DNA of 64,000 bases from a virus. Its lineage: Duplodnaviria > Heunggongvirae > Uroviricota > Caudoviricetes. The notes under the pieces are model-generated. The model did not search any database, had not been told where the DNA came from, and saw nothing but the letters and a program-made list of their open reading frames with translations. The position numbers and the translations under genes are program-made. Numbering within the stretch: position 1 is the stretch's first letter; every line of letters starts with the position of its first letter. The DNA is taken from positions 210,787 to 274,786 of IMG/VR virus record IMGVR_UViG_3300002834_000024; one strand, given 5' to 3'. Positions 3,369 through 44,551 of the stretch are shown one piece after another.

Positions 3369-3518
3369 TTATTTAGTTCTGATAATAGCACGTCTTGTAT
3401 TCACTCTTGGAGTAACCCCACCATAGTTACCATTAGGTTTAACCCCAATATTTCTTGGTGCTTGTTTTTGAACCTGTGTTTTAACAGCTGGTACAGCTCT
3501 TTTTGAACAATTGCACAT
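3369..3518 (-). CDS. Small basic protein MCNCSKRAVPAVKTQVQKQAPRNIGVKPNGNYGGVTPRVNTRRAIIRTK (49 aa, not in ORF track)
   Basis: Clean ATG-TAA ORF with TATTTATA on the minus strand at 3536-3543. Confidence 0.55.
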   Translation of the reverse strand: MCNCSKRAVPAVKTQVQKQAPRNIGVKPNGNYGGVTPRVNTRRAIIRTK

Positions 3519-3633
3519 AATATTAATTATTTTAATATAAATATGATTAAAACTTGGAATATTGAAATATTTATACTATATTTATAAATGAAATTACAGA
3601 GGTAATTCAAGAAAAAAGAAAATAACAAGGTAA

Positions 3634-4007
3634 AGGAAATTCACAGCAATTTTTTAAAAATTAACAATTATTCAATTCAAAGACCGTAGGGTTGATCTAT
3701 CGGGATCAACAAACAAAAACAAATTTCCTGTCTTTTTTAAAGGAAAACTAACAGCAATTTTTAAACATACAAATTTTAGGCGTGTATTAAAGAGTTTTCC
3801 GTTTTTTTTTTGAAAATTTAGAAATAATCAATATATTTATATTTGATTAAAAATTATATCGTGGGATGGAGAAGTGGTATCTCGTGGGGCCCATAACCCC
3901 AAGATCGCAGGATCGTAACCTGCTCCCGCAACAAACTTATAGGAAAACTAACAGCAATGTTTAAAAACCATCATTCTGAATCAATGACGACATTAAAATG
4001 TTTTCCG
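3634..4007 (+). repeat. Three ACAGCAA stem-loop units (3634-3730, 3741-3801, 3941-4007), candidate small RNAs
   Basis: Each has a GGAAA-containing 5' arm, then ACAGCAAT, an internal hairpin and the complementary TTTCC arm. Confidence 0.65.
3860..3931 (+). tRNA. tRNA-Met(CAT), initiator type
   Basis: C1:A72 mismatch, GGG/CCC anticodon stem, loop CCCATAA. Confidence 0.85.
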
Positions 4008-4056
4008 TTATTTTTTAAAAATTGAACTATTTATAATTCTAAAAGAAATTAAAAAA

Positions 4057-4191
4057 ATGTTTTTAGTAACAATGACATCTTATATTCAAAATTCTATCAA
4101 TTTACGTGGTGGAAATAAGAATAATAAACCCTTTGGTGATGATGAACAACCAAAAGGGCAAGACCTGTTATTGCAAAAATTTGAAACATAA
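4057..4191 (+). CDS. Leader peptide 1 of putative tRNA-array attenuator, MFLVTMTSYIQNSINLRGGNKNNKPFGDDEQPKGQDLLLQKFET (alternative start 4072)
   Basis: Core 4105-4164 has 19 of 20 codons for R,G,N,K,P,D,E,Q, the amino acids of the downstream array; overlaps antiterminator strand 4162-4173. Confidence 0.75.
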   Translation: MFLVTMTSYIQNSINLRGGNKNNKPFGDDEQPKGQDLLLQKFET

Positions 4192-4220
4192 ATGAAGATA
4201 TAAGTTTCCATAGTTTTTCA

Positions 4221-4279
4221 GAGAACTCTCAATAACAAGGTCAAGAATAGGGCAAGTTATTGGGAGTTTTCATTTTTTT
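4221..4279 (+). terminator. Intrinsic terminator of attenuator 1
   Basis: 16-bp stem GAGAACTCTCAATAAC/GTTATTGGGAGTTTTC followed by A and T7. Confidence 0.8.
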
Positions 4280-4322
4280 AACATCCAGTTCAAAAGAGTT
4301 TGAATAATTTGGATTACTTTTG
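4278..4322 (+). promoter_or_regulatory. TTAACATCCAG box plus TActTTTG -7 promoter upstream of tRNA array 1
   Basis: Box 4278-4288; -7 element starts at 4315. Confidence 0.75.
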
Positions 4323-4332
4323 TAAAAAATAT

Positions 4333-4407
4333 GGCGGTATCGTATAACGGTTAGTACGACTGACTTTCGCTCAGTAAATAGGGGTTCGATTCCCCTTACC
4401 GCTACCA
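4333..4407 (+). tRNA. tRNA-Glu(TTC)
   Basis: Cloverleaf, loop CTTTCGC, encoded CCA. Confidence 0.92.
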
Positions 4408-4431
4408 AGAAAGTTCTTTGAAATATAAAAT

Positions 4432-4503
4432 TCCCCTGTAGCTCCAATGTAGAGCGACAGACTGTTAATCTGTGGGTTCGTGGTTCAAGTCCACGCAGGG
4501 GAG
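4432..4503 (+). tRNA. tRNA-Asn(GTT)
   Basis: Cloverleaf, loop CTGTTAA. Confidence 0.92.
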
Positions 4504-4511
4504 CTAAAAAA

Positions 4512-4588
4512 CGAAAGGTAGAGGAGTCTGGTTCCCTCGTCATCTGATGTGCAGGTGGAGTACAATGGTTCAAATCCATTACTTTCGA
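4512..4588 (+). tRNA. Atypical tRNA-like gene (Pro-like body, non-canonical anticodon loop GATGTGC)
   Basis: Acceptor CGAAAG/CTTTCG plus A73; T arm AATGG-TTCAAAT-CCATT; D loop like the next tRNA-Pro. Confidence 0.6.
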
Positions 4589-4595
4589 CTAATAT

Positions 4596-4671
4596 CTAGA
4601 TGTATAGGAGTCTGGTTTATCTAGCTCGCCCTGGAAGCGAGATCACGTTGGTTCAAATCCAACCATCTAGA
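4596..4671 (+). tRNA. tRNA-Pro(TGG), variant loop CCTGGAA
   Basis: CTAGATG/CATCTAG acceptor, CTCGC/GCGAG anticodon stem. Confidence 0.8.
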
Positions 4672-4678
4672 CACAAAT

Positions 4679-4752
4679 GCAGGTGTCGTATAACGGTATT
4701 ATTATATCTGGCTTCCAACCAGAGGACGTGGGTTCGATTCCTATCACCTGCT
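4679..4752 (+). tRNA. tRNA-Gly(TCC)
   Basis: Cloverleaf, loop CTTCCAA. Confidence 0.92.
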
Positions 4753-4762
4753 CAACAAATAT

Positions 4763-4835
4763 GGGATTTGTGGTGTAATGGCTAGCATATAACACTGTCA
4801 CTGTTAAGGTTGGGGTTCGAGTCCCCCAGATCCCG
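4763..4835 (+). tRNA. tRNA-Asp(GTC)
   Basis: Cloverleaf, loop CTGTCAC. Confidence 0.9.
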
Positions 4836-4843
4836 CAAAAAAA

Positions 4844-4916
4844 CGAGTAGTCGCACAGTTGGTAGTGCGCTTGGTTTGGGACCAAGAGGTCGGGAGTTCG
4901 AGTCTCTCCTATTCGA
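4844..4916 (+). tRNA. tRNA-Pro(TGG)
   Basis: Cloverleaf, loop TTTGGGA. Confidence 0.92.
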
Positions 4917-4932
4917 CATAAAAATAGAAATT

Positions 4933-4998
4933 ATGAAGAAGATTTTTAAAATAAAACGAAAACATATGCAGTCCCCATAGTCACTATCGGCTATGGGG
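4933..4998 (+). promoter_or_regulatory. Mini-ORF MKKIFKIKRKHMQSP (4933-4980) overlapping a GC-rich hairpin (4973-4998)
   Basis: CCCCATAGTC/GGCTATGGGG stem; lies directly before the Lys, Arg and Gln tRNAs. Confidence 0.45.
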
Positions 4999-5013
4999 TC
5001 GCTATCAGGCTAT

Positions 5014-5084
5014 TTCCTCATAGTTCAATGGTAGAACTCTACACTTTTAATGTAGATATTCAGGTTCGATTCCTGATGGGGAAA
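5014..5084 (+). tRNA. tRNA-Lys(TTT)
   Basis: Cloverleaf, loop CTTTTAA. Confidence 0.9.
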
Positions 5085-5116
5085 CAAAAAAAAAATAGAT
5101 ATATGATAATTAATAT

Positions 5117-5188
5117 GGTTTCATAGTTCAACGGATAGAATATTTGACTACGGATCAAAAGATGAGGGTTCAAATCCTTCTGAAATCA
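5117..5188 (+). tRNA. tRNA-Arg(ACG)
   Basis: Cloverleaf, loop CTACGGA. Confidence 0.9.
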
Positions 5189-5199
5189 CAAGCATATAT

Positions 5200-5271
5200 T
5201 GTCCTATGGTGTAGTTGGAAACACACATCCCTTTGACGGATGTATCTTTTGTTCGAGGCAAAATGGGACAA
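5200..5271 (+). tRNA. tRNA-Gln(TTG)
   Basis: Cloverleaf, loop CTTTGAC. Confidence 0.85.
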
Positions 5272-5290
5272 CAAATTAAAATATAATGTT

Positions 5291-5593
5291 ATGGATAAAA
5301 TAATGATGTTTGATAAAGAACATGAAGTTCTTGTTAGTAATGATACTAATGGATTAGTATGTGAAACTGAAATGATGAATATGATTGGGAAATCAACAAT
5401 TCCAGTTTTTATGAATAGAAAGCAAAAATTAGAAGAACATGCAAGTTTGTTGTTAAATGATTTAGATGTTGAAATTATTCAATCACATCCAGTTGAACCA
5501 TCTAAAATTCATGTAAAAGTAAAATCATTTGAGGATTGGAAAGAATCTATAAAAGATATACCGCCAATTGGAGTAGTAACCATACCTAATTGA
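5291..5593 (+). CDS. Hypothetical protein (start moved downstream of tRNA-Gln)
   Basis: ORF-track 5240 start overlaps the tRNA; MDKIMMF start near 5291-5292. Confidence 0.5.
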   Translation: MDKIMMFDKEHEVLVSNDTNGLVCETEMMNMIGKSTIPVFMNRKQKLEEHASLLLNDLDVEIIQSHPVEPSKIHVKVKSFEDWKESIKDIPPIGVVTIPN

Positions 5594-5607
5594 TAATACC
5601 ATCTAAT

Positions 5608-5652
5608 TTAACATCCAGTAAAATTTATTTTTATATAAGTTTATTATTTTTG
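5608..5652 (+). promoter_or_regulatory. TTAACATCCAG box plus TAttTTTG promoter
   Basis: Box 5608-5618; -7 element at 5645. Confidence 0.75.
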
Positions 5653-5685
5653 TATCATTATTAACACAAATAATTTAAAAAAGTT

Positions 5686-6033
5686 ATGAGAATTGCATTT
5701 AGGCTTTGTGATAATACAAAACAGTTAAAAACAACTGATAAAAATGCACATGTTTTTGAAAGAGTAGATGATACATTCATAATTCCAAGAAAAGGTGATG
5801 TAGTTGTTTTTTTTGGTATAAAATATGAGGTAATTTCAGTAGAATTTACCTATAAAGAAATATCATTATTAAATATGTATCATGATGAAGCAAAGAAGAT
5901 TTATCCATTTATTGTGGGACAAGATGATAAAATAACAGATACGGTAACTGTTCATTTATTTGAATATAGTCCAAAAATAAAGAAAAAGGGGTTTATTCGC
6001 ACACTTCTTTCACATGGGTTTACTAATTTTTAA
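5686..6033 (+). CDS. Hypothetical protein
   Basis: 115 aa; IPRKGDVV motif resembles LPRKGDFI in 54677..55120. Confidence 0.55.
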   Translation: MRIAFRLCDNTKQLKTTDKNAHVFERVDDTFIIPRKGDVVVFFGIKYEVISVEFTYKEISLLNMYHDEAKKIYPFIVGQDDKITDTVTVHLFEYSPKIKKKGFIRTLLSHGFTNF

Positions 6034-6062
6034 AATTCATATTTATAAGAAAATATGTTTTT

Positions 6063-6302
6063 ATGGAAAAAATTGAAAATATTATAAAAGAAACTATAAC
6101 TGAATATGTTTTGCAACCAGAGGGGTTGGATCAAAAGATTAGAAATAAATTAACACCAATATATAATCTCATTGAAGTATTAAAAATGTATGATAAAGAT
6201 CCAGATCCAAAAATATGGGCGTTTATTATGAAAGAAAACAGTATGGTTGAAAAATCTATTCAAGAGATATTGGAATTAACAAAAGATTATCAACACACTT
6301 AA
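6063..6302 (+). CDS. Hypothetical protein
   Basis: ORF after TATTTATA 6040-6047. Confidence 0.5.
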   Translation: MEKIENIIKETITEYVLQPEGLDQKIRNKLTPIYNLIEVLKMYDKDPDPKIWAFIMKENSMVEKSIQEILELTKDYQHT

Positions 6303-6316
6303 AATCATATAATGTT

Positions 6317-6529
6317 ATGACAGAAAAACAGAAACAAAAAATTTGGAATTTCAAGGATACCAATCTTCAACAATGGCAACATGAAAGAACTATTGTTGAA
6401 AATGAATTATCTAATAATCAATCCATGTTTTGTGTTTGTGGTAAATTAGCCACAGGATTTCATGAAATGAATTGTAGAAAATTCAATGATAAAGTGGATA
6501 TAGAAACTCTTAAAAGATTAAAATTATAA
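6317..6529 (+). CDS. Small Cys/His (zinc-binding-like) protein
   Basis: CVCG...HEMNC. Confidence 0.5.
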   Translation: MTEKQKQKIWNFKDTNLQQWQHERTIVENELSNNQSMFCVCGKLATGFHEMNCRKFNDKVDIETLKRLKL

Positions 6530-6531
6530 AA

Positions 6532-6576
6532 TTAACATCCAGAACACTTTTTATTAATATGTTATGTTTATCTTTG
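6532..6576 (+). promoter_or_regulatory. TTAACATCCAG box plus TAtcTTTG promoter
   Basis: Box 6532-6542; -7 element at 6569. Confidence 0.75.
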
Positions 6577-6629
6577 AGTAATTTTTAGAGATAAAAGGAT
6601 ATTTATTTAGTAGAAAAGATAAAAATAAT

Positions 6630-7361
6630 ATGATTATGAACAAAGATAAAAAAGACTTGATAGTTGAGAGTTATAAGAACAAATTTTCCTTTTTACTTGG
6701 ATATGATCCAGAAATTGGGGGCGAATTGATAGAAGCAAACCACCATAATTTTATGTCAGAAATTATGGGACAAGATTCATTCAATAAACAACCAATGCAA
6801 AGATTAGATGAAATAACAACTGACAGATTGTTAGGAAAACATTATGAAAATGGATTTGTTATTCTGTCAGCATCAAGGAGTGAATTATCCGATGCAGAAA
6901 ATGTAACACGAAATCAAAAACTTTTAAATATTTTACAAAGTAGTAGTAATGTTTTTTCATTTTTACCAGTCTATGGTGGATATATCGAAAATAAGGGTAC
7001 AGAAAACGAACAACGTGTTTTTGAAAGAAGTTTTGTAATCTTGAATTTTGATAAAAATGGTAATGTTGGAGATTTTGATGATTTAATGAGTTTTTCACAA
7101 GAACTTTCTAATCGTTTTCATCAAGAAACATATCTTATCAAAAAACCAGGTAATGCACCACCATATTATATTCGTACAAAAAGTGGCAAGGTAGATTGGG
7201 AATTTACTGGTGAAATCAAAATAGATGATTTAACACAAAAATATTTTACCCGATTAAGACAACTTGGAAAACAATTTACATTTGAAGGTGTTTATATTAA
7301 TCCAAAACCAATGTGTTATAGTGAAAGACATTGTAGATATTTGAAAAATGAAATATTTTAA
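6630..7361 (+). CDS. Hypothetical phage protein (DUF3293-like)
   Basis: GFVILSASR...EN..RN..L...PVYGGY.E...ERSF pattern. Confidence 0.5.
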   Translation: MIMNKDKKDLIVESYKNKFSFLLGYDPEIGGELIEANHHNFMSEIMGQDSFNKQPMQRLDEITTDRLLGKHYENGFVILSASRSELSDAENVTRNQKLLNILQSSSNVFSFLPVYGGYIENKGTENEQRVFERSFVILNFDKNGNVGDFDDLMSFSQELSNRFHQETYLIKKPGNAPPYYIRTKSGKVDWEFTGEIKIDDLTQKYFTRLRQLGKQFTFEGVYINPKPMCYSERHCRYLKNEIF

Positions 7362-7403
7362 CATCCAGAAGATTGTTTTTTAAAAAAATTGTTTGTACTT
7401 TTG
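7358..7403 (+). promoter_or_regulatory. TTAACATCCAG box plus TActTTTG promoter driving a non-coding region
   Basis: Box 7358-7368; -7 element at 7396. Confidence 0.75.
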
Positions 7404-7428
7404 TATCACATATAGAGTAATCTATATT

Positions 7429-7627
7429 GTTTAAATTTAGTTATGAGGATGTGGACTGAATTGTGTGATGTATGTCATTGCAAAATGCACAATTCAAGGG
7501 ATACAGCAAGACAGCTAACAAGGTGAATTAACATCAAAGGGTGAAAATCTCACAAACATAAGGTTGAAAGCCCGTAAAAGAATTTGATGCGTGTTGATTG
7601 TGTAGTAATTATTTTAAACTTTTTTTT
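7429..7627 (+). ncRNA. Candidate structured ncRNA, about 190 nt
   Basis: Own promoter, terminal stem GTTTAAA/TTTAAAC plus T8, internal helices GAATTGTG/CACAATTC and CATCAAA/TTTGATG, GAAA-capped hairpins, no long ORF. Confidence 0.55.
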
Positions 7628-7677
7628 AAAAATTGAATTTATTGACTATTTATAATAAAATTAAAAATTTTTTAACA

Positions 7678-7788
7678 ATGAAACGATTTAGTTTACATAT
7701 TAGTATTACCTTATCAGCAATGGCGTATTGCTGGTTGGTGTCTTATTGTACACTTTTTACACATTTTGGTGGAATTGTTTCAAGTTAA
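7678..7788 (+). CDS. Leader peptide 2 of putative tRNA-array attenuator, MKRFSLHISITLSAMAYCWLVSYCTLFTHFGGIVSS
   Basis: 27 consecutive codons (7687-7767) only for F,S,L,H,I,T,A,M,Y,C,W,V, the amino acids of array 2; last codons form the antiterminator strand. Confidence 0.8.
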   Translation: MKRFSLHISITLSAMAYCWLVSYCTLFTHFGGIVSS

Positions 7789-7819
7789 TATTATATGAAA
7801 TAAAGATAGGAAAGATTAT

Positions 7820-7876
7820 AATCCCCTTGAAACAAATTAGTCAAAAAGTGATGAAAAGTTTTAAGGGGATTTTTTT
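7820..7876 (+). terminator. Intrinsic terminator of attenuator 2
   Basis: 14-bp stem AATCCCCTTGAAAC/GTTTTAAGGGGATT followed by a T-run, ending 2-3 nt before tRNA-Met. Confidence 0.82.
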
Positions 7877-7878
7877 AT

Positions 7879-7950
7879 TGTGTTATAGTTCAGTGGTAGA
7901 ACAGGTGTTTCATAGGCATCAAGTCGGGGGTTCAAATCCCTCTAACGCAA
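7879..7950 (+). tRNA. tRNA-Met(CAT), elongator type
   Basis: Cloverleaf, loop TTCATAG. Confidence 0.85.
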
Positions 7951-7960
7951 CAAATATATT

Positions 7961-8045
7961 GGAGAGTAAACCTGGACATGGGTTAGGGACCGCCTGCTAA
8001 GCGGATCGTTCCGCAAGGAATTTGGATCGAGACCAATGCTCTCCG
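7961..8045 (+). tRNA. tRNA-Ser(GCT)
   Basis: Long variable arm, loop CTGCTAA, G73. Confidence 0.85.
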
Positions 8046-8054
8046 CAAAATTTT

Positions 8055-8146
8055 GGAGGTGTAACCCTAATGTGTAAGGGACTGGTCTTGAAAACCAGCA
8101 GTAATCATGTAAAAGTGATGTGTCAGTTCGAGTCTGACCACCTCCG
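8055..8146 (+). tRNA. tRNA-Ser(TGA)
   Basis: Long variable arm, loop CTTGAAA. Confidence 0.9.
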
Positions 8147-8186
8147 CCTTAATAATGAGGTCTTTGACATGTTGGTAAAAATAAAT

Positions 8187-8274
8187 GAGAGTGCGCTAGC
8201 GTTGGAGAGCTGGGATGGGCTGTAACCCCATTGCCTTTAACAGGGCTTAGTAGGTTCGATTCCTACCACTCTCA
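8187..8274 (+). tRNA. tRNA-Tyr(GTA)
   Basis: Loop CTGTAAC, long variable arm. Confidence 0.9.
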
Positions 8275-8279
8275 CATAT

Positions 8280-8354
8280 GGGAATATCGTATAGGTGGTT
8301 ATTGTACGCTGGACTGAAAATCCAGAGGCTGGGGTTCAACTCCCTGTGTTCCCA
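8280..8354 (+). tRNA. tRNA-Phe(GAA)
   Basis: Loop CTGAAAA. Confidence 0.9.
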
Positions 8355-8364
8355 CAATAAGTGA

Positions 8365-8448
8365 GGGGATGTGGCGAAATTGGTAGTACGCATCGGGTTT
8401 AAGCCCCGATTCCCAAAAGGAGTGTCGGTTCGAGTCCGACCATCCTCA
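8365..8448 (+). tRNA. tRNA-Leu(TAA)
   Basis: Loop TTTAAGC, variable arm. Confidence 0.9.
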
Positions 8449-8456
8449 CAACAAAT

Positions 8457-8541
8457 GGGGATATGGGGGAATTGGCAGACCCGCCTGTTTTAGGAACAGG
8501 TGCAGTAATGCGTGTGAGTTCGAGTCTCACTATCCCTACCA
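8457..8541 (+). tRNA. tRNA-Leu(TAG)
   Basis: Loop TTTAGGA, encoded CCA. Confidence 0.92.
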
Positions 8542-8544
8542 AAT

Positions 8545-8615
8545 GTTCCATTAGCATAATGGTAGTGTACTGGTCTGCAAAACCAGGTGTATCCGTTCAA
8601 TTCGGATATGGAACT
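8545..8615 (+). tRNA. tRNA-Cys(GCA)
   Basis: Loop CTGCAAA, U73. Confidence 0.88.
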
Positions 8616-8629
8616 CAAAAAATATTAAA

Positions 8630-8702
8630 GGGGCTGTCATATAGTTGGCTATTATGATAGATTTGCAATCTATTCACTGGGGTTCGAGACCCCACAGCTC
8701 CA
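8630..8702 (+). tRNA. tRNA-Ala(TGC)
   Basis: G3:U70, loop TTTGCAA. Confidence 0.9.
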
Positions 8703-8708
8703 CAAAAA

Positions 8709-8782
8709 GTTTCTGTATTTCAGTGGTTTAGAATGTTACTCTTACAAGGTAAAGGTCGTTGGTTCAAATCCAACCAGAAACA
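8709..8782 (+). tRNA. tRNA-Val(TAC)
   Basis: Loop CTTACAA. Confidence 0.88.
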
Positions 8783-8792
8783 CTCATAACAT

Positions 8793-8865
8793 TGGCACGT
8801 ATATCAATGGTCAGATTACCACCCTGATAAGGTGGGGGTTACTGGTTCAAGTCCAGTCGTGCCAA
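8793..8865 (+). tRNA. tRNA-Ile(GAT)
   Basis: Loop CTGATAA. Confidence 0.9.
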
Positions 8866-8880
8866 CTAAATTTTTTATAT

Positions 8881-8951
8881 AGGTACATGGTGTAATGGTA
8901 GCATTTTGGTCTCCAAAACCAACGATCAGGGTTCAAATCCTTGTGTACCTG
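8881..8951 (+). tRNA. tRNA-Trp(CCA)
   Basis: Loop CTCCAAA, G73. Confidence 0.92.
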
Positions 8952-8957
8952 CTACAT

Positions 8958-9031
8958 GGTATCGCTGGTGTAATGGTTAGCATGGCACATTGTGAGTGTG
9001 TAGGTTAGGGGTTCAAGTCCCCTGCGATACC
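8958..9031 (+). tRNA. tRNA-His(GTG)
   Basis: G-1:C73, loop TTGTGAG. Confidence 0.88.
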
Positions 9032-9087
9032 CAAATATTTGGAAAACAATTTTAAAAACAGTATTTTTGTATTAAAATTTTAAAAAT

Positions 9088-9594
9088 ATGAATAAAAAAA
9101 TGATTTTATTGTCAATATTAATGACAAGTCTGTTTTATGGTTGTGGAAGTATGGGTAGTGTTGCTGTTAAAAATGTAAATTCATGTACATATAAAATTGT
9201 TAATACAACTTTTATTTATGATTTGTTTGATAGTGATGAAGAATATGAAAATAAATTTAGGTTAATTAAATTAGCAATTTATGATATATTTCCTAATATG
9301 GATGGTAACACATTTTTATTTGATGATGAATTAAAAGTTATTCAAGGAAAAATGATTTATAATGTACATACAGATTCTTTTTTTGGAACAAAATATGAAG
9401 GGAGAAGTAATTTCAAAATTATTAATAATAAGATAACATTTAGTAATCCCGAAATATTTTTTTTACCATCTCGTTATAGTAGTGGTGGGTGGGAGAAAAT
9501 ACCAAATGAGGGAACTATATCTGAAAAAACCGCATGTAATACAATAGATGTGTGGGAAAAAATGGTAATAAAACTTTTAGAAAACATAAAATGA
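9088..9594 (+). CDS. Putative lipoprotein located within tRNA array 2
   Basis: Signal peptide with LFYGC lipobox-like site; TAttTTTG at 9062. Confidence 0.6.
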   Translation: MNKKMILLSILMTSLFYGCGSMGSVAVKNVNSCTYKIVNTTFIYDLFDSDEEYENKFRLIKLAIYDIFPNMDGNTFLFDDELKVIQGKMIYNVHTDSFFGTKYEGRSNFKIINNKITFSNPEIFFLPSRYSSGGWEKIPNEGTISEKTACNTIDVWEKMVIKLLENIK

Positions 9595-9599
9595 TTAAT

Positions 9600-9671
9600 G
9601 CTTCTGTAGTTCAATGGCTAGAACATCTGCTTTGTAACCAGAAAATATCAGTTCGATTCTGATCAGAAGCT
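9600..9671 (+). tRNA. tRNA-Thr(TGT)
   Basis: Loop TTTGTAA; C31:C39 mismatch. Confidence 0.85.
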
Positions 9672-9871
9672 CTCAATTTTTACCAACAAAATGTCAAAAG
9701 AATTATATAATTGGTTAGAATTTCGTTTCAGACATGATAATTTAAAAAAATATCATAAATATTTTCAACAATGGGTTGATAATATAACTGAAAATCAAGT
9801 TCAAGGTTTTTATAATCAATTTACCAGTTTCATAGGTCAAGATATAATTTGGAAACCATAATTTACCAACA

Positions 9872-10195
9872 ATGAAAAATTTCAATAAACTTAGAGAGGA
9901 AGAAAAATATATTTATGAATCCATTATGGCAGCCAGAAAGGTTCAATCTTTTTTATGGGGCGAATTTGAAGAAACAAGTGCTGACATAGAAGAATTTTGT
10001 CGAATGTTTCGGAAAAGAGTTTCAAAAATTGATGAAATAGATTTTAATAATCCACATTATAAAATTGAATTAAAAAAGAGGGTACTTCAAATTTGTGCTA
10101 TTGGTATTAATTTTATCAATAAATTGGAAAATAATGACTTTCCTGAAAAACCACTATTACCATCTAATCTTTCAAACTATTCATTATCCAATTAA
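9872..10195 (+). CDS. Hypothetical protein (possibly MazG-like helical)
   Basis: ELKKRVLQICAIGI C-terminal helix. Confidence 0.4.
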   Translation: MKNFNKLREEEKYIYESIMAARKVQSFLWGEFEETSADIEEFCRMFRKRVSKIDEIDFNNPHYKIELKKRVLQICAIGINFINKLENNDFPEKPLLPSNLSNYSLSN

Positions 10196-26982: not shown

Positions 26983-27055
26983 TGTCCTTTCCTCTAGTTG
27001 GTTAGGAGACATGACTCATAATCATGCAAGCTCGGTTCGATGCCGAGAGGGACAA
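26983..27055 (+). tRNA. tRNA-CAT (probably Ile2, lysidine type, or Met)
   Basis: Cloverleaf, loop CTCATAA; third CAT tRNA in the window. Confidence 0.8.
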
Positions 27056-39582: not shown

Positions 39583-40098
39583 ATGAAAGCAATTACAATT
39601 AAAAATCCATGGGCATTTTGGATATGTTCAGGATTGAAAGATATTGAGAATAGAACTTGGAGTACCAATTATCGTGGTAAGGTTTTGGTACATGTGTCAA
39701 GTAAAATGGAGGATATTAGTAATATTCTGGATAATTATTTCAATGATAAAATGTATCATGATTTGCAACAAAATATACAATGGATAAAAAAATCTAATTA
39801 TCCTTATAACATTAAAGATACATGTGGTGCAATAATAGGTTCAGTTGATATTGTTGATTGTGTTATTAATTATCCATCACAATGGGCTGAAGAAACATAT
39901 GAAACAAATTATGGATTTAGAAAACCTATCATATATAATTGGGTGTTAAAAAATCCAATATTATATCGAGAACCCCTTTTTAATGTTAAAGGTCAATTGA
40001 AGTTATGGGATGTAACAGCAGAACAATATAGAGATTCATATTGTAATAATGAAACTTCAGTGATGAAACATAATTTAATGTTGAAAAATGGCAATTGA
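39583..40098 (+). CDS. ASCH domain protein
   Basis: AITIKNPWA..I..G.KDIENRTW.T.YRG...KGQLKLW. Confidence 0.85.
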   Translation: MKAITIKNPWAFWICSGLKDIENRTWSTNYRGKVLVHVSSKMEDISNILDNYFNDKMYHDLQQNIQWIKKSNYPYNIKDTCGAIIGSVDIVDCVINYPSQWAEETYETNYGFRKPIIYNWVLKNPILYREPLFNVKGQLKLWDVTAEQYRDSYCNNETSVMKHNLMLKNGN

Positions 40099-43000
40099 AA
40101 TAAATAAAATTAAAACATTCCTTGAAGGAAGTGATCCCCAAAAACGCATTGTAAACATTGAATGTGGTTATGGGGATACCGAAGTTTCTATATTTTCTAG
40201 AAATGATTTAAGTGAAATAGTTGTAAATAGAGAAGAATTTTTTCCGTTTGTATGGGCAAAACTAAAAGTTACAGATATGTTGATAGCTCATTATGGAAGC
40301 CGATCTGCTCTTGAATGGGGATTAAGAACAGCAAAGATTTGGGTTGATTGTTTAAAAACGGATAATGAAAATGGTCAAAGCCCCAAAAGAATGTTGGATG
40401 GATATAATGTTTTATTCTTTGCAACAGAATCTATGTCATATTCTAAATTTACAAAATTTTTTAGAGATTGTGGAATAGATATATATGGTTCAGAAAAAAA
40501 CTTTATGGCGATAACACCAGTTGAACAATACATGATTAAATCTGGAAAACGTTATTTTAAAGAGTTAAACGAATATGATGATTTATTGAGATGTATTTGG
40601 GATATTGAAACAGAGGGATTAGATCCAAATGATTGTGCAATCACACAGATAGGTATAAGTACCAATAAGGGATATGAACAAGTATTACATGTGGAAGGTA
40701 ATACAAAAGAAGAAAAAGAAGAATCTGAAAGAAAAACTATACAAAAGTTTTTTCAAAATATTGAACATATAAATCCTGATATATTAGCTGGTCATAATTC
40801 AGAAGTATTCGACTGGCCATTTATATTAAGAAGAATTGAACTTTTATGGCCAGATAAAGAAAATATATTTGATAATATAATAAAACATTTTTGGGGACCA
40901 AATAATAAGTTTAATGATGGTAAATATGATAGATTTACCCAATTAAAAGATAAGAAAACAAAAAAAGAATATACCGCAAATCGAACTCTTTACAAAAAGG
41001 ATATTAAGTCAGTTTTAAAACTTGGAAATGAGGCTGAATATTTTTATCCAACAATTTGGTATGGACATACAGTTGTTGATAGTTTACATGCTTGTAGGCG
41101 AGCGCAAGCTATTGATAGTAATATGAAGTCAGGTTCTTTGAAATATGCTGCTGAATACGCTAAACAGAAGAAACAAAATAGAGTTTATATACCTGGTGAT
41201 AAAATATCAGATGTATATTATGATAAATCTGATTTTGTTTTAGATGAATCAAATGGCGAATGGCATAAACTTAAATCAAATGAAGAACTAACCGAAACAC
41301 AAAAGGTTGTTTCTGGTAAGTATATTGCTGATAGATACTTGTTAGATGACTTATATGAAGGTGATAGGGTTGAATGGTATTATAACCAATCTTCATTCTT
41401 TCTATCTAAAATGCTTCCAATACCATATCAAAAAGTATTAACTATGGGTACAAGTGCTACATGGAAATATATTTTATTGGCGTGGTCATACGAAAATAAA
41501 TTAGCGGTTCCGGCACTTAGTGAATTGAAACCATTTACAGGCGGATTATCACGTTTATTAAAAGTTGGTTTTGTAAAGGATATTGTTAAATTAGACTTCA
41601 ATTCACTTTATCCAGCAATTACATTATCATTTGATGTATTCCCAAAATTGGATATTTCTGGTGTTTTTAAAACATTACTTGGTCATATACTTTCTGAACG
41701 TGAAAGATTTAAAGGATTAAAAAAGGAATTTGGAAAAAAAGCAAAAGCAACAGATGATCCAGTAGAAAAATTAAAATTTGAACAAGAAGAAGCTAGAAAT
41801 GACAAATTACAATTACCTTTCAAAATATTTGGTAATGCTTTCTTTGGGTCGTATGGAGCTCCAAATATTTTTAATTGGGGCGATGTAACAAAAGCTGAAC
41901 AGATTACTTGTACAGCCAGACAATGTTTACGATTAATGACTAAATGGTTTGAAGATCGTGGATTTAGATCTGTCGTGATGGATAGTGTTACTGGTGATAC
42001 ACCAATTTTAATTAAATATAAATATAACAATGAAATTGACATAAAACAAATTTGTGATTTATTTGATGAAAATAAATGTGTTGATATAAATAATAATGGA
42101 CAATTTAGAGATTTTAGTGAAAAACCATATTTGGTTTTAACAAGAAATGGATGGAAAGATATAGAATATGTTTATAAACATAAAACCAACAAAAAAATCC
42201 ATAGAATAAAAACAAAAGATGTTTTAATAGATGTAACAGAAGATCATTCTCTTTTTGATAAAAATAAAAAAGAAATACAACCAAAAAATATTAAAATTGG
42301 CGATAAAATAGAATTATATGAAAAAAGCTTAGATTATGTTTTTAATAATAATGGTCTAAATGAAGATATTGCATGGTTAATTGGTTTATTTGTTGGTGAT
42401 GGTTCTTGTTTGTGTAGAAAACGTCCTCAAAAATATTTTTCAAAAAGAAAGTGTAATTATAATATAAATTATTGTTTTGGTTGTGATTGGAAAATTGATA
42501 ACTTAAATTATGAATTTTTAATAAAAGCACAAAATATTTTAAAAAATGAATATAATATAAATGCAAATATTAAAGATCATATAGAATCAAGTGGTGTTTT
42601 TTGTTTAAGAACAAGTAATTCAAAATTGAGTCGATTTTTTGCCGAAAATTGTTATACTAATAATCGTTTAAAAAAAATACCATCTATAATTTTAAATAGT
42701 GATTTAAAAATTAAAAAGGCATTTATTAATGGGTTACTATGTGCTGATGGATATGGTTATGATATTGATAAAACAATTAGTATTGGTCAAAAATCAAAGG
42801 TAGTTATGGCTGGTATTGATTTAATTTTTAGAGAATTAAAAGTTAATTATAGAATATTGATTAGAAAAGATAAACCCAATTTTATCACATTTAGTATTAA
42901 AAATCGTCATGGCAATAACATAAACGATAATTATTCAAAACAAAAATCAGAGGAAGTTTTTAGAAATGACATATTGTTTAATGAATATAATGATTATGTT

Positions 43001-44551
43001 TATGATATATCATTAGATGGGACATTTATAAACGCATTAGGAATGAATGTATTACATAATACAGATGGCATAAACTTTTCATATTCAGATGTGAATGTTG
43101 ATTACACATATACTGGAAATGGACTTAGCAGAAATACAAAAGAAGGTAAAGAATATCATGGAATAGAGGCTTATGTTGCAGAGTTCAATGATTTATTTAT
43201 GAGAGAAAAAATGGGTTTGGGAATAGATGAATATGCTTCAAATACCATTAACTTTTCACGTAAAAACTATGCTGACTTATTGGATAATGGTAAAGTTAAA
43301 TATGTTGGTAATAGCATCAAATCTAAAAAGATGCCTAAATACATTGAGAAATTTTTAGAAACTAATATTCTATTATTATTAAATGATGATGGATATACAT
43401 TTTTAAAAAATTATAATGAATACATTAATAAAATATATAATTACCAAATACCATTAAGGGATATTGCTTCAATTGGTTCTATTAAGGTATCACTGAAAGA
43501 ATATCAAAAAAATTCAAGTGGAAAAAATAAAGCTGGTGGGGATAAAGCAAAACAAGCATGGTATGAATTAGCACTTCAACATAATATCCAAGTACATCCT
43601 GGTGATAAAATCCATTATGTAAATATTGGTGTTAAAAAATCAGAAGGTGATGTTATTAAAGAAGATATATATGAATATGATGTTGATGGTAACATTGTAA
43701 TGGTTGATAAAGTTGATAAAAAAACGGGTGAAATTGTTTATGCAAAGCGTGGAGAATGTAAACCACTTCAAAGTAAAAAAGTTATTGGTTACAAACCAAG
43801 ATTAAATTGTGTAAGAATTGATCCAACAATCATTGAATCAGATATTGATTATTATGGGCATGAAGATATTTTTGGGGATAATCCTATTCAATATAATGCT
43901 GCAAAATATATCAGTCAGTTTAACAGCCGAATTAAAGCATTATTAGTTTGTTTTCATCCTGATATTCGAGATAAAATATTGGTTGAAACACCTGATAAAG
44001 CAAATTATTTTACAGAAGAACAATCTAAATTAACATCAGGATTTCCAAATAAAGAAATTGATCAAGATACCCTTGAAGCTCTTTTAACAATGGAAGATAA
44101 AGAGATTAAATTTTGGACACAAAATAATCTTGAACCACCATTTGTTAATGAAATTGGTATTGATTGGGAGGCAGTGAAAAGAGATTATTATCAAAGACAA
44201 GAGGAACTTAGATCTTGTGTTAAAGAAGAATCTGACAAATATAATAATATTATTGAAAGAATTACAGAAGATGATATAAAAGAATTTAACGAAAGTGGTG
44301 GTATAGTTGATAAATTATGGTTTTTTAATGAAATATTAGAATTTTGTAAAATATCAATAGATTTAGATTTTATATCAAAATTACATAATGTTAAATTGGG
44401 AACACTTTCTGATATAACTGAAAAACAATTTTATGAATCTGATGGTGATGATGAAAATGAAAGTACTGGAACCACAGATGTTAATAATGAATACGCATGT
44501 TATCAATATATGAATGATGAAGATTATGGGAAAATGCCACTCATTTTATAA
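40088..44551 (+). CDS. Family B DNA polymerase containing an intein
   Basis: DIETEG exonuclease I, DFNSLYP, K..GN..FG, D/TDG split by intein, KNYA. Confidence 0.93.
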   Translation: MAIEINKIKTFLEGSDPQKRIVNIECGYGDTEVSIFSRNDLSEIVVNREEFFPFVWAKLKVTDMLIAHYGSRSALEWGLRTAKIWVDCLKTDNENGQSPKRMLDGYNVLFFATESMSYSKFTKFFRDCGIDIYGSEKNFMAITPVEQYMIKSGKRYFKELNEYDDLLRCIWDIETEGLDPNDCAITQIGISTNKGYEQVLHVEGNTKEEKEESERKTIQKFFQNIEHINPDILAGHNSEVFDWPFILRRIELLWPDKENIFDNIIKHFWGPNNKFNDGKYDRFTQLKDKKTKKEYTANRTLYKKDIKSVLKLGNEAEYFYPTIWYGHTVVDSLHACRRAQAIDSNMKSGSLKYAAEYAKQKKQNRVYIPGDKISDVYYDKSDFVLDESNGEWHKLKSNEELTETQKVVSGKYIADRYLLDDLYEGDRVEWYYNQSSFFLSKMLPIPYQKVLTMGTSATWKYILLAWSYENKLAVPALSELKPFTGGLSRLLKVGFVKDIVKLDFNSLYPAITLSFDVFPKLDISGVFKTLLGHILSERERFKGLKKEFGKKAKATDDPVEKLKFEQEEARNDKLQLPFKIFGNAFFGSYGAPNIFNWGDVTKAEQITCTARQCLRLMTKWFEDRGFRSVVMDSVTGDTPILIKYKYNNEIDIKQICDLFDENKCVDINNNGQFRDFSEKPYLVLTRNGWKDIEYVYKHKTNKKIHRIKTKDVLIDVTEDHSLFDKNKKEIQPKNIKIGDKIELYEKSLDYVFNNNGLNEDIAWLIGLFVGDGSCLCRKRPQKYFSKRKCNYNINYCFGCDWKIDNLNYEFLIKAQNILKNEYNINANIKDHIESSGVFCLRTSNSKLSRFFAENCYTNNRLKKIPSIILNSDLKIKKAFINGLLCADGYGYDIDKTISIGQKSKVVMAGIDLIFRELKVNYRILIRKDKPNFITFSIKNRHGNNINDNYSKQKSEEVFRNDILFNEYNDYVYDISLDGTFINALGMNVLHNTDGINFSYSDVNVDYTYTGNGLSRNTKEGKEYHGIEAYVAEFNDLFMREKMGLGIDEYASNTINFSRKNYADLLDNGKVKYVGNSIKSKKMPKYIEKFLETNILLLLNDDGYTFLKNYNEYINKIYNYQIPLRDIASIGSIKVSLKEYQKNSSGKNKAGGDKAKQAWYELALQHNIQVHPGDKIHYVNIGVKKSEGDVIKEDIYEYDVDGNIVMVDKVDKKTGEIVYAKRGECKPLQSKKVIGYKPRLNCVRIDPTIIESDIDYYGHEDIFGDNPIQYNAAKYISQFNSRIKALLVCFHPDIRDKILVETPDKANYFTEEQSKLTSGFPNKEIDQDTLEALLTMEDKEIKFWTQNNLEPPFVNEIGIDWEAVKRDYYQRQEELRSCVKEESDKYNNIIERITEDDIKEFNESGGIVDKLWFFNEILEFCKISIDLDFISKLHNVKLGTLSDITEKQFYESDGDDENESTGTTDVNNEYACYQYMNDEDYGKMPLIL
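41984..43060 (+). mobile_element. Intein (359 aa) with LAGLIDADG homing endonuclease in PolB motif C
   Basis: MD|SVTGDTP...TEDHSLF...LIGLFVGDG...FINGLLCADG...VYDIS...LHN|TDG. Confidence 0.92.

Follow-up and report, generated by a model that had tools for sequence, protein, structure and literature searches.

A block of 13 contiguous tRNA genes (array 2) occupies positions 7879–9032, + strand, of the window, by which is meant the whole 64-kb stretch of phage DNA analyzed here. The genes encode, in order, Met, Ser(GCT), Ser(TGA), Tyr, Phe, Leu(TAA), Leu(TAG), Cys, Ala, Val, Ile, Trp and His. A preliminary description of the window had counted 14 tRNAs in this array, which held only in part: Thr(TGT), at 9600–9672, stands apart, beyond a lipoprotein-like 168-aa ORF (9088–9594) that has its own TTTG-N20-TAnnTTTG promoter match (9038–9069), all on the + strand. 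Judging from this internal promoter match, tRNA-Thr is likely not controlled solely by the element described below; in G001, the nearest complete relative (52% identity in DNA polymerase), Thr sits within the homologous tRNA block. The Ser(GCT) gene (about 7961–8045) was missed by ARAGORN and Rfam, and is 73% identical to the Ser(GCT) gene of G001 that ARAGORN does call, with a matching anticodon arm. DNA-pattern searches for the terminator–tRNA junction and for Ser(GCT) returned no matches. A motif inside the array (8158–8170, + strand) is boxA-like; similar motifs are found in tRNA arrays 3′ of an attenuator at window 4412–4424 and at about 8168–8182 of the G001 locus (L081), as well as in another relative (G002) and, just past the terminator, in L082. 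These motifs might point to antitermination by host Nus factors on the long RNA, which is not translated.

Upstream of the array, on the same strand, lie a leader ORF of 36 codons with an A-rich start context (7678–7788, stop codon TAA at 7786–7788) and, 34 nt past that stop, a terminator stem formed by 7823–7833 with 7858–7868 and followed by a tract of seven T (7870–7876); tRNA-Met begins 2 nt beyond the tract, at 7879. The likely promoter (7360–7403, + strand) combines a AACATCCAG element with a −7 box of the Bacteroidota type, TAnnTTTG (7396–7403), and the start site is inferred to lie near 7410. AACATCCAG occurs 28 times genome-wide, mostly about 30–36 nt 5′ of a −7 box ending in TTTG and usually after a T run (window sites 4280, 5610, 6534, 7360 and 11575), and probably serves either as a promoter element or as a site for a phage regulator. 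A second motif, TATTTATA (7647–7654, + strand), is a candidate promoter for a phage sigma factor; it is also present 5′ of the leader of array 1 (4028) and of several relatives' leaders, and upstream of genes it is found 20 times in sense and nine times in antisense orientation. Between the upstream promoter and the leader, about 230 nt (7410–7640) are richer in G+C and hold no credible gene; Rfam gives no match in 7405–7640, which folds no better than shuffled sequence (z −0.76).

The window makes up the final 64 kb of a linear virus record of 274,786 bp (29% G+C, about 74% complete). It encodes a family B DNA polymerase that appears to contain an intein (window 40088–44551); because the same protein is found on a 347-kb contig, the full genome is probably longer than the record. 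The window sequence was found in termite-gut metagenomes, and two DNA runs show no differences from it over the covered parts of 3500–10000, one of which may be its source. No RNA dataset was among the sequencing runs found to contain phage sequence, and a database search found no close relative among cultured phages. The base at −3 is A in 131 of 241 genes and Shine–Dalgarno-like words precede only eight; together with the TAnnTTTG boxes, we take these start contexts to indicate a Bacteroidota host, an inference that is likely correct. Attenuation would here require the host core RNA polymerase. Three sigma factors are encoded in the phage genome, and neither an RNA polymerase subunit nor a tubulin was detected in the part of the genome on record (chimallin was outside the search); a beta-prime domain and tubulin were likewise not found in two complete relatives. 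The phage thus appears to use the host core polymerase, and coupled host transcription is possible.

Codon content of the leader

The preliminary description had listed the codons of the leader (both Ser boxes, both Leu boxes and codons for the other amino acids served by the 14 tRNAs), and this list held exactly. So did its claim of a run of 27, as residues 4–30 are consecutive members of the set of 12 amino acids; four unmatched codons had been left out, namely AAA and CGA (codons 2 and 3) and GGT and GGA (codons 31 and 32). Codons decoded by the block make up 31 of 35, against 51% expected (binomial, 3e-6). All 14 downstream tRNA classes are covered if four-way wobble at U34 over whole family boxes is assumed. 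The claim that the leader matches all 14 tRNAs codon by codon held only partly, in that strict wobble leaves Leu(TAG) without a leader codon. Each tRNA is represented by one to three scattered codons, and tandem runs of control codons are absent.

The strength of this match rests on its two components taken together. Among 2,745 six-frame windows, 31 or more matches occur in 12, and match plus full coverage in one, which is the leader ORF itself; the joint property is met by none of 72,425 windows of real genes and by seven of 31,514 base shuffles. Even within the restricted alphabet, the probability of covering all 14 classes is 0.03. A run of 27 is likewise absent from the 72,425 windows of real genes, but three other ORFs, all shadow frames, carry runs of 27–32. 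The chance of about 1e-6 per position given in the preliminary description therefore holds for real genes, fails for AT-rich shadow ORFs and was overstated, and run length alone is weaker evidence than had been claimed because such frames yield runs of this length. The absence of ATA codons from the leader, also noted there, is true and carries little weight, with a chance of 0.27 for three Ile codons. Both run length alone and ATA absence were rejected as evidence. The suggestion that the tRNA-CAT gene at 26983 decodes ATA is plausible because it has C4–G69 and C5–G68, the determinants for the lysidine synthetase of E. coli.

Predicted competing RNA structures ahead of array 2

The leader transcript can form three mutually competing helices from four segments, all on the + strand. 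Segment 1, an anti-antiterminator in the start region (7679–7689), pairs with 7772–7782 when the RNA is not translated (1:2). Segment 2 is the antiterminator strand (7775–7784, codons 33–36), which is conserved in G001. Its alternative partner, segment 3, is by folding the 5′ arm of the terminator (7823–7835), and the two form a 2:3 helix between 7775–7784 and 7826–7835. Segment 4 (7858–7876) comprises the terminator 3′ arm (7858–7868) and the T tract, and the 3:4 helix (7823–7833 with 7858–7868) gives a hairpin of −19 kcal/mol. Two claims of the preliminary description were confirmed at this point: 7775–7784 is the exact reverse complement of 7826–7835 over 10 bp, and it adjoins the stop codon, ending one base before the TAA. 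The length of the antiterminator is unusual under codon shuffling (p about 0.001), and values across the antiterminator tests ranged from p=0.001 to 0.007. Against G001, one change in the 1:2 helix is compensatory and another affects one side only; conservation of the 2:3 helix rests on sequence identity alone, without compensatory changes.

In the folding model, the naked RNA adopts 1:2 plus 3:4. When a ribosome footprint was imposed on RNA ending at 7850, the probability of 2:3 was 0.94–0.98 with A-site codons 3–28, fell over codons 29–31 and was zero from about codon 32; these values come from the model and not from measurement. The matched run ends at codon 30, that is, at the boundary set by the footprint (codons 29–31), and the unmatched Gly–Gly pair (codons 31–32) starts where stalling would no longer work. 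In full-length RNA at equilibrium, the terminator prevails (0.97) wherever the ribosome is placed, so any switch must be kinetic. A path search placed the barrier at no more than about 13 kcal/mol, a value that is an upper bound.

One rival explanation is that the leader does not gate the array at all, either because a promoter lies in the spacer or hairpin (7795–7822, with a start near 7829) or because the hairpin is a processing signal. In its favor, 7795–7822 matches a sigma-70-like consensus at 10 of 12 positions, and array 1 does have a promoter match after its terminator. However, sigma-70-like matches are at the level of chance (47 versus 45.2) and the site is absent from G001, on which grounds it was rejected. 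Neither TAnnTTTG nor TATTTATA occurs between 7654 and 8658, and only 2 nt separate the T tract from tRNA-Met, where the preliminary description saw no room for a promoter. The rival also leaves the antiterminator and the codon covariation described below unexplained, and we regard it as very unlikely. A T-box riboswitch, which would show a stem I with specifier loop and a T-box antiterminator motif, was considered separately and rejected, as Rfam gave no match to T-box or any other leader in 3400–10000 up to E=5.

Leaders and tRNA content in relatives

A DNA-polymerase alignment query returned 80 loci, and the tRNA regions of 18 records were fetched. A true homologue of the leader was found only in G001 (L081:7887–7997); other matches in the search with the antiterminator pattern were unrelated. 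No homologue was found for a 51-aa extended form of the leader ORF, and a two-sequence profile of the leader found nothing among 1.84 billion representatives. The G001 homologue is also 36 codons long and has 31% peptide identity, concentrated in the base-pairing ends; it retains the length, the antiterminator strand and the terminator arm, and its matched run likewise ends at codon 30.

Between the two homologues, the codons change with the tRNA genes. The G001 block encodes Ser, Tyr, Ser, Phe, Leu(TAG), Cys, Thr, Ala, Ile and His and lacks Met, Val, Trp and Leu(TAA), and the G001 leader has no internal ATG, TGG, TTA or TTG and has Val solely in the antiterminator. In the G001 leader, 0 of 32 codons specify Met, Val or Trp or are TTA or TTG, versus 6 of 32 in the leader of the window (p=0.012). 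Because the G001 leader has four Phe codons, a Phe gene was sought in its block and was found as Phe(GAA) at L081:9362–9434, which ARAGORN had missed. The Gln, Gly and Trp tRNAs of G001 form a separate block behind another leader that is rich in Gln, Gly and Trp (z 5.3).

A sister element precedes array 1 in the window, where a leader of 44 codons (leader 1), an antiterminator and a terminator occupy 4057–4280 (+ strand); the antiterminator is also present in sister leaders. Array 1 encodes Glu, Asn, Pro, Gly, Asp, Lys, Arg and Gln, so that each of the 20 amino acids is served by just one of the two arrays if a degenerate Thr-like gene at 4512 is excluded. Codons for Gly, Gln and Arg account for 9 of 43 in leader 1 versus 1 of 42 in leader A of G001 (p=0.008), whose block has no Gly, Gln or Arg tRNAs. 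Attenuation at array 1 may only add to a basal level, because a promoter match (4280–4322) directly follows its terminator; array 2 has no such match.

Several features of these regions were recorded in passing. The degenerate tRNA-like gene (window 4512–4589, after tRNA-Asn; counterpart at L081 5894–5968) has a Pro-type D arm and a non-canonical anticodon loop with the central triplet TGT in the window and AGT in G001, and could be a non-decoding mimic. The tRNA-Pro that follows it (4596–4672) has C33. At window 4933–5010, a Lys-rich mini-ORF with KIKRK is followed by a hairpin without a T tract and then by tRNA-Lys, an arrangement conserved in G001 (L081 about 6262–6320). A repeat (GGAAAACTAACAGCAAT ... 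TTTTCC, then a T run) at window 3725–3805 and 3940–4010 flanks the initiator tRNA, and comparable motifs border tRNA blocks in G001; it could be a regulatory repeat or a small structured RNA. In G002, a tmRNA gene lies between tRNA blocks (L083 1874–2325).

Other relatives extend the match between leader and block. A G002 leader covers all nine tRNAs of its block, and in G023 two tRNA-Gln genes follow a leader of 12 codons, five of them for Gln. Across nine filtered leader–block pairs, leaders match their own blocks better than permuted ones (p=1e-5, or 2.7e-4 without the window). The filter ignores composition; its thresholds were chosen after a first look at the candidates, and no phylogenetic correction was applied. 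It dropped two apparent leaders (G001 leader A and G002), and two of the nine retained pairs show no match (z −0.3 and 0.1). In more distant relatives, a leader could not be detected before many of the tRNA blocks.

These comparisons bear on two further rivals. The first holds that the leader encodes a functional hydrophobic mini-protein ahead of an ordinary leaky terminator, with the tRNA match a by-product of hydrophobic composition. In support, the leader peptide has a GRAVY of 0.89, and hydrophobic or shadow ORFs give long runs of the same residues. Against it, the best 19-residue hydropathy (KD19) is 1.46 in the window, below the usual membrane-helix threshold of 1.6, and at most 0.75 in G001 (GRAVY 0.18), so that there is no conserved hydrophobic helix of about 19 residues. 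Moreover, the residues vary with tRNA content, identity is concentrated in the base-pairing ends, and sister leaders are hydrophilic and match their own blocks. The preliminary description had named a membrane mini-protein as the case that would refute it; hydropathy and covariation disfavor this case, since the G001 homologue lacks hydrophobic character and varies along with the tRNAs encoded, and we consider the rival very unlikely.

The second holds that the element is a translation-coupled gauge of overall ribosome speed or amino-acid starvation, that the codon match is a trace of history or the result of mild tuning, and that losing a single tRNA class would not trigger the switch. The small number of codons per tRNA and the lack of tandem runs, unlike the his, phe and thr leaders, speak for it, as does the weak match of hydrophilic leaders (p=0.035–0.16). 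On the other side, individual rare codons (TGG, internal ATG) come and go with the tRNA genes, and a general gauge would need no separate leader for each block. This rival seems unlikely, though less clearly so than the other two.

A proposed attenuator and its relation to known systems

In the preferred reading, array 2 lies under a ribosome-mediated transcription attenuator and is expressed only when the codons read by its tRNAs are decoded slowly. We regard this as likely, with function inferred in the absence of expression data. The leader-peptide attenuator proposed in the preliminary description is supported by the anatomy of the locus, by the modelled folds, by a matched run that stops at the footprint boundary and by the covariation in relatives. 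The element has a short ORF, an intrinsic terminator before the genes, a mutually exclusive antiterminator, matching codons and, in the model, suitable codon placement; the feature missing is tandem runs of control codons. The sequence features, their statistics, the covariation and the predicted structures are shown, and each step that follows depends on use of the promoter, translation, coupling, termination and a physiological trigger that are all inferred.

Host RNA polymerase would start upstream, as inferred from the promoter motifs, and a ribosome would translate the 36-codon leader behind it. With fast decoding, the ribosome would reach codons 31–37 and cover 7775–7784, the terminator would form and transcription would stop at about 7876 (the structures are predicted by folding and termination is inferred). 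If any of the 14 tRNA classes were scarce or uncharged, the ribosome is modelled to lag within codons 4–30, so that the antiterminator would form first and trap the terminator 5′ arm, allowing read-through into tRNA-Met and the rest of the array. The new phage tRNAs would then speed decoding and re-close the switch, an inferred negative feedback. If the leader were not translated, the start region is modelled to sequester the antiterminator, giving termination by default; this fold is clear in the window and less so in G001.

Much of this design is familiar. The trpL, hisL, pheL, leuL, thrL and ilvGMEDA leaders share a short ORF overlapping segments 1 and 2, competition among 1:2, 2:3 and 3:4 with a U-tract terminator, read-through upon stalling and default termination without translation. 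Classical leaders use tandem codon runs for one to three amino acids, whereas the phage leader would sense 12 amino acids and 14 tRNA classes with scattered codons, and it would control tRNA genes rather than enzymes, such that the product is the sensed molecule. The pheM attenuator of E. coli pheST likewise controls translation machinery via charged tRNA but responds to one amino acid, has a protein-coding target and is chromosomal. T-box riboswitches also read tRNA status through a terminator/antiterminator switch; they differ in binding uncharged tRNA directly, without need of translation. In Anabaena, the trn operon is a spare array of 26 tRNA genes that is off until translational stress (PMC10272220). 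It resembles array 2 as a stress-induced spare array and differs in its control, which is exerted at initiation by the ribbon-helix-helix repressor TrcR, with no codon-specific leader in the abstract (PMC10272220). No account of attenuation of phage tRNA genes was found in the literature searched, which did not cover most subscription journals. Leader-peptide attenuation itself is known, and the phage element would differ in its tRNA-gene target, its phage setting and its breadth of 12 amino acids.

The design by itself cannot tell tRNA loss from amino-acid starvation. Phage tRNAs have been proposed to counter host tRNA depletion, which is a reason to sense depletion (PMC10264068); that paper concerns tRNA sequence, and the words attenuation and leader are absent from it. 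Extra tRNA helps mainly under tRNA loss, which fits this proposal. A bolder reading is that the leader is a codon-resolved gauge of the tRNA pool in the infected cell, that loss of any one class, for example to a host anticodon nuclease, would stall the ribosome and switch the replacement block on, and that every relocation of tRNA genes from one block to another brings a rewriting of the leaders. Taken jointly, these three parts could as readily prove wrong as right.

For more than 50 years it has been an open question why phages carry tRNAs (PMC10264068). The codons of a leader can point to tRNA genes overlooked by annotation tools, as with Phe in G001. The phage-tRNA question becomes directly testable with a 200-nt reporter, which could reveal which depletions, such as starvation or defence nucleases, switch the element on. 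If the attenuator reading is true, attenuation would come to include a feedback loop through which tRNA genes monitor what they themselves produce, and the tie between expression of the block and slow decoding would favor on-demand supply over constitutive codon compensation.
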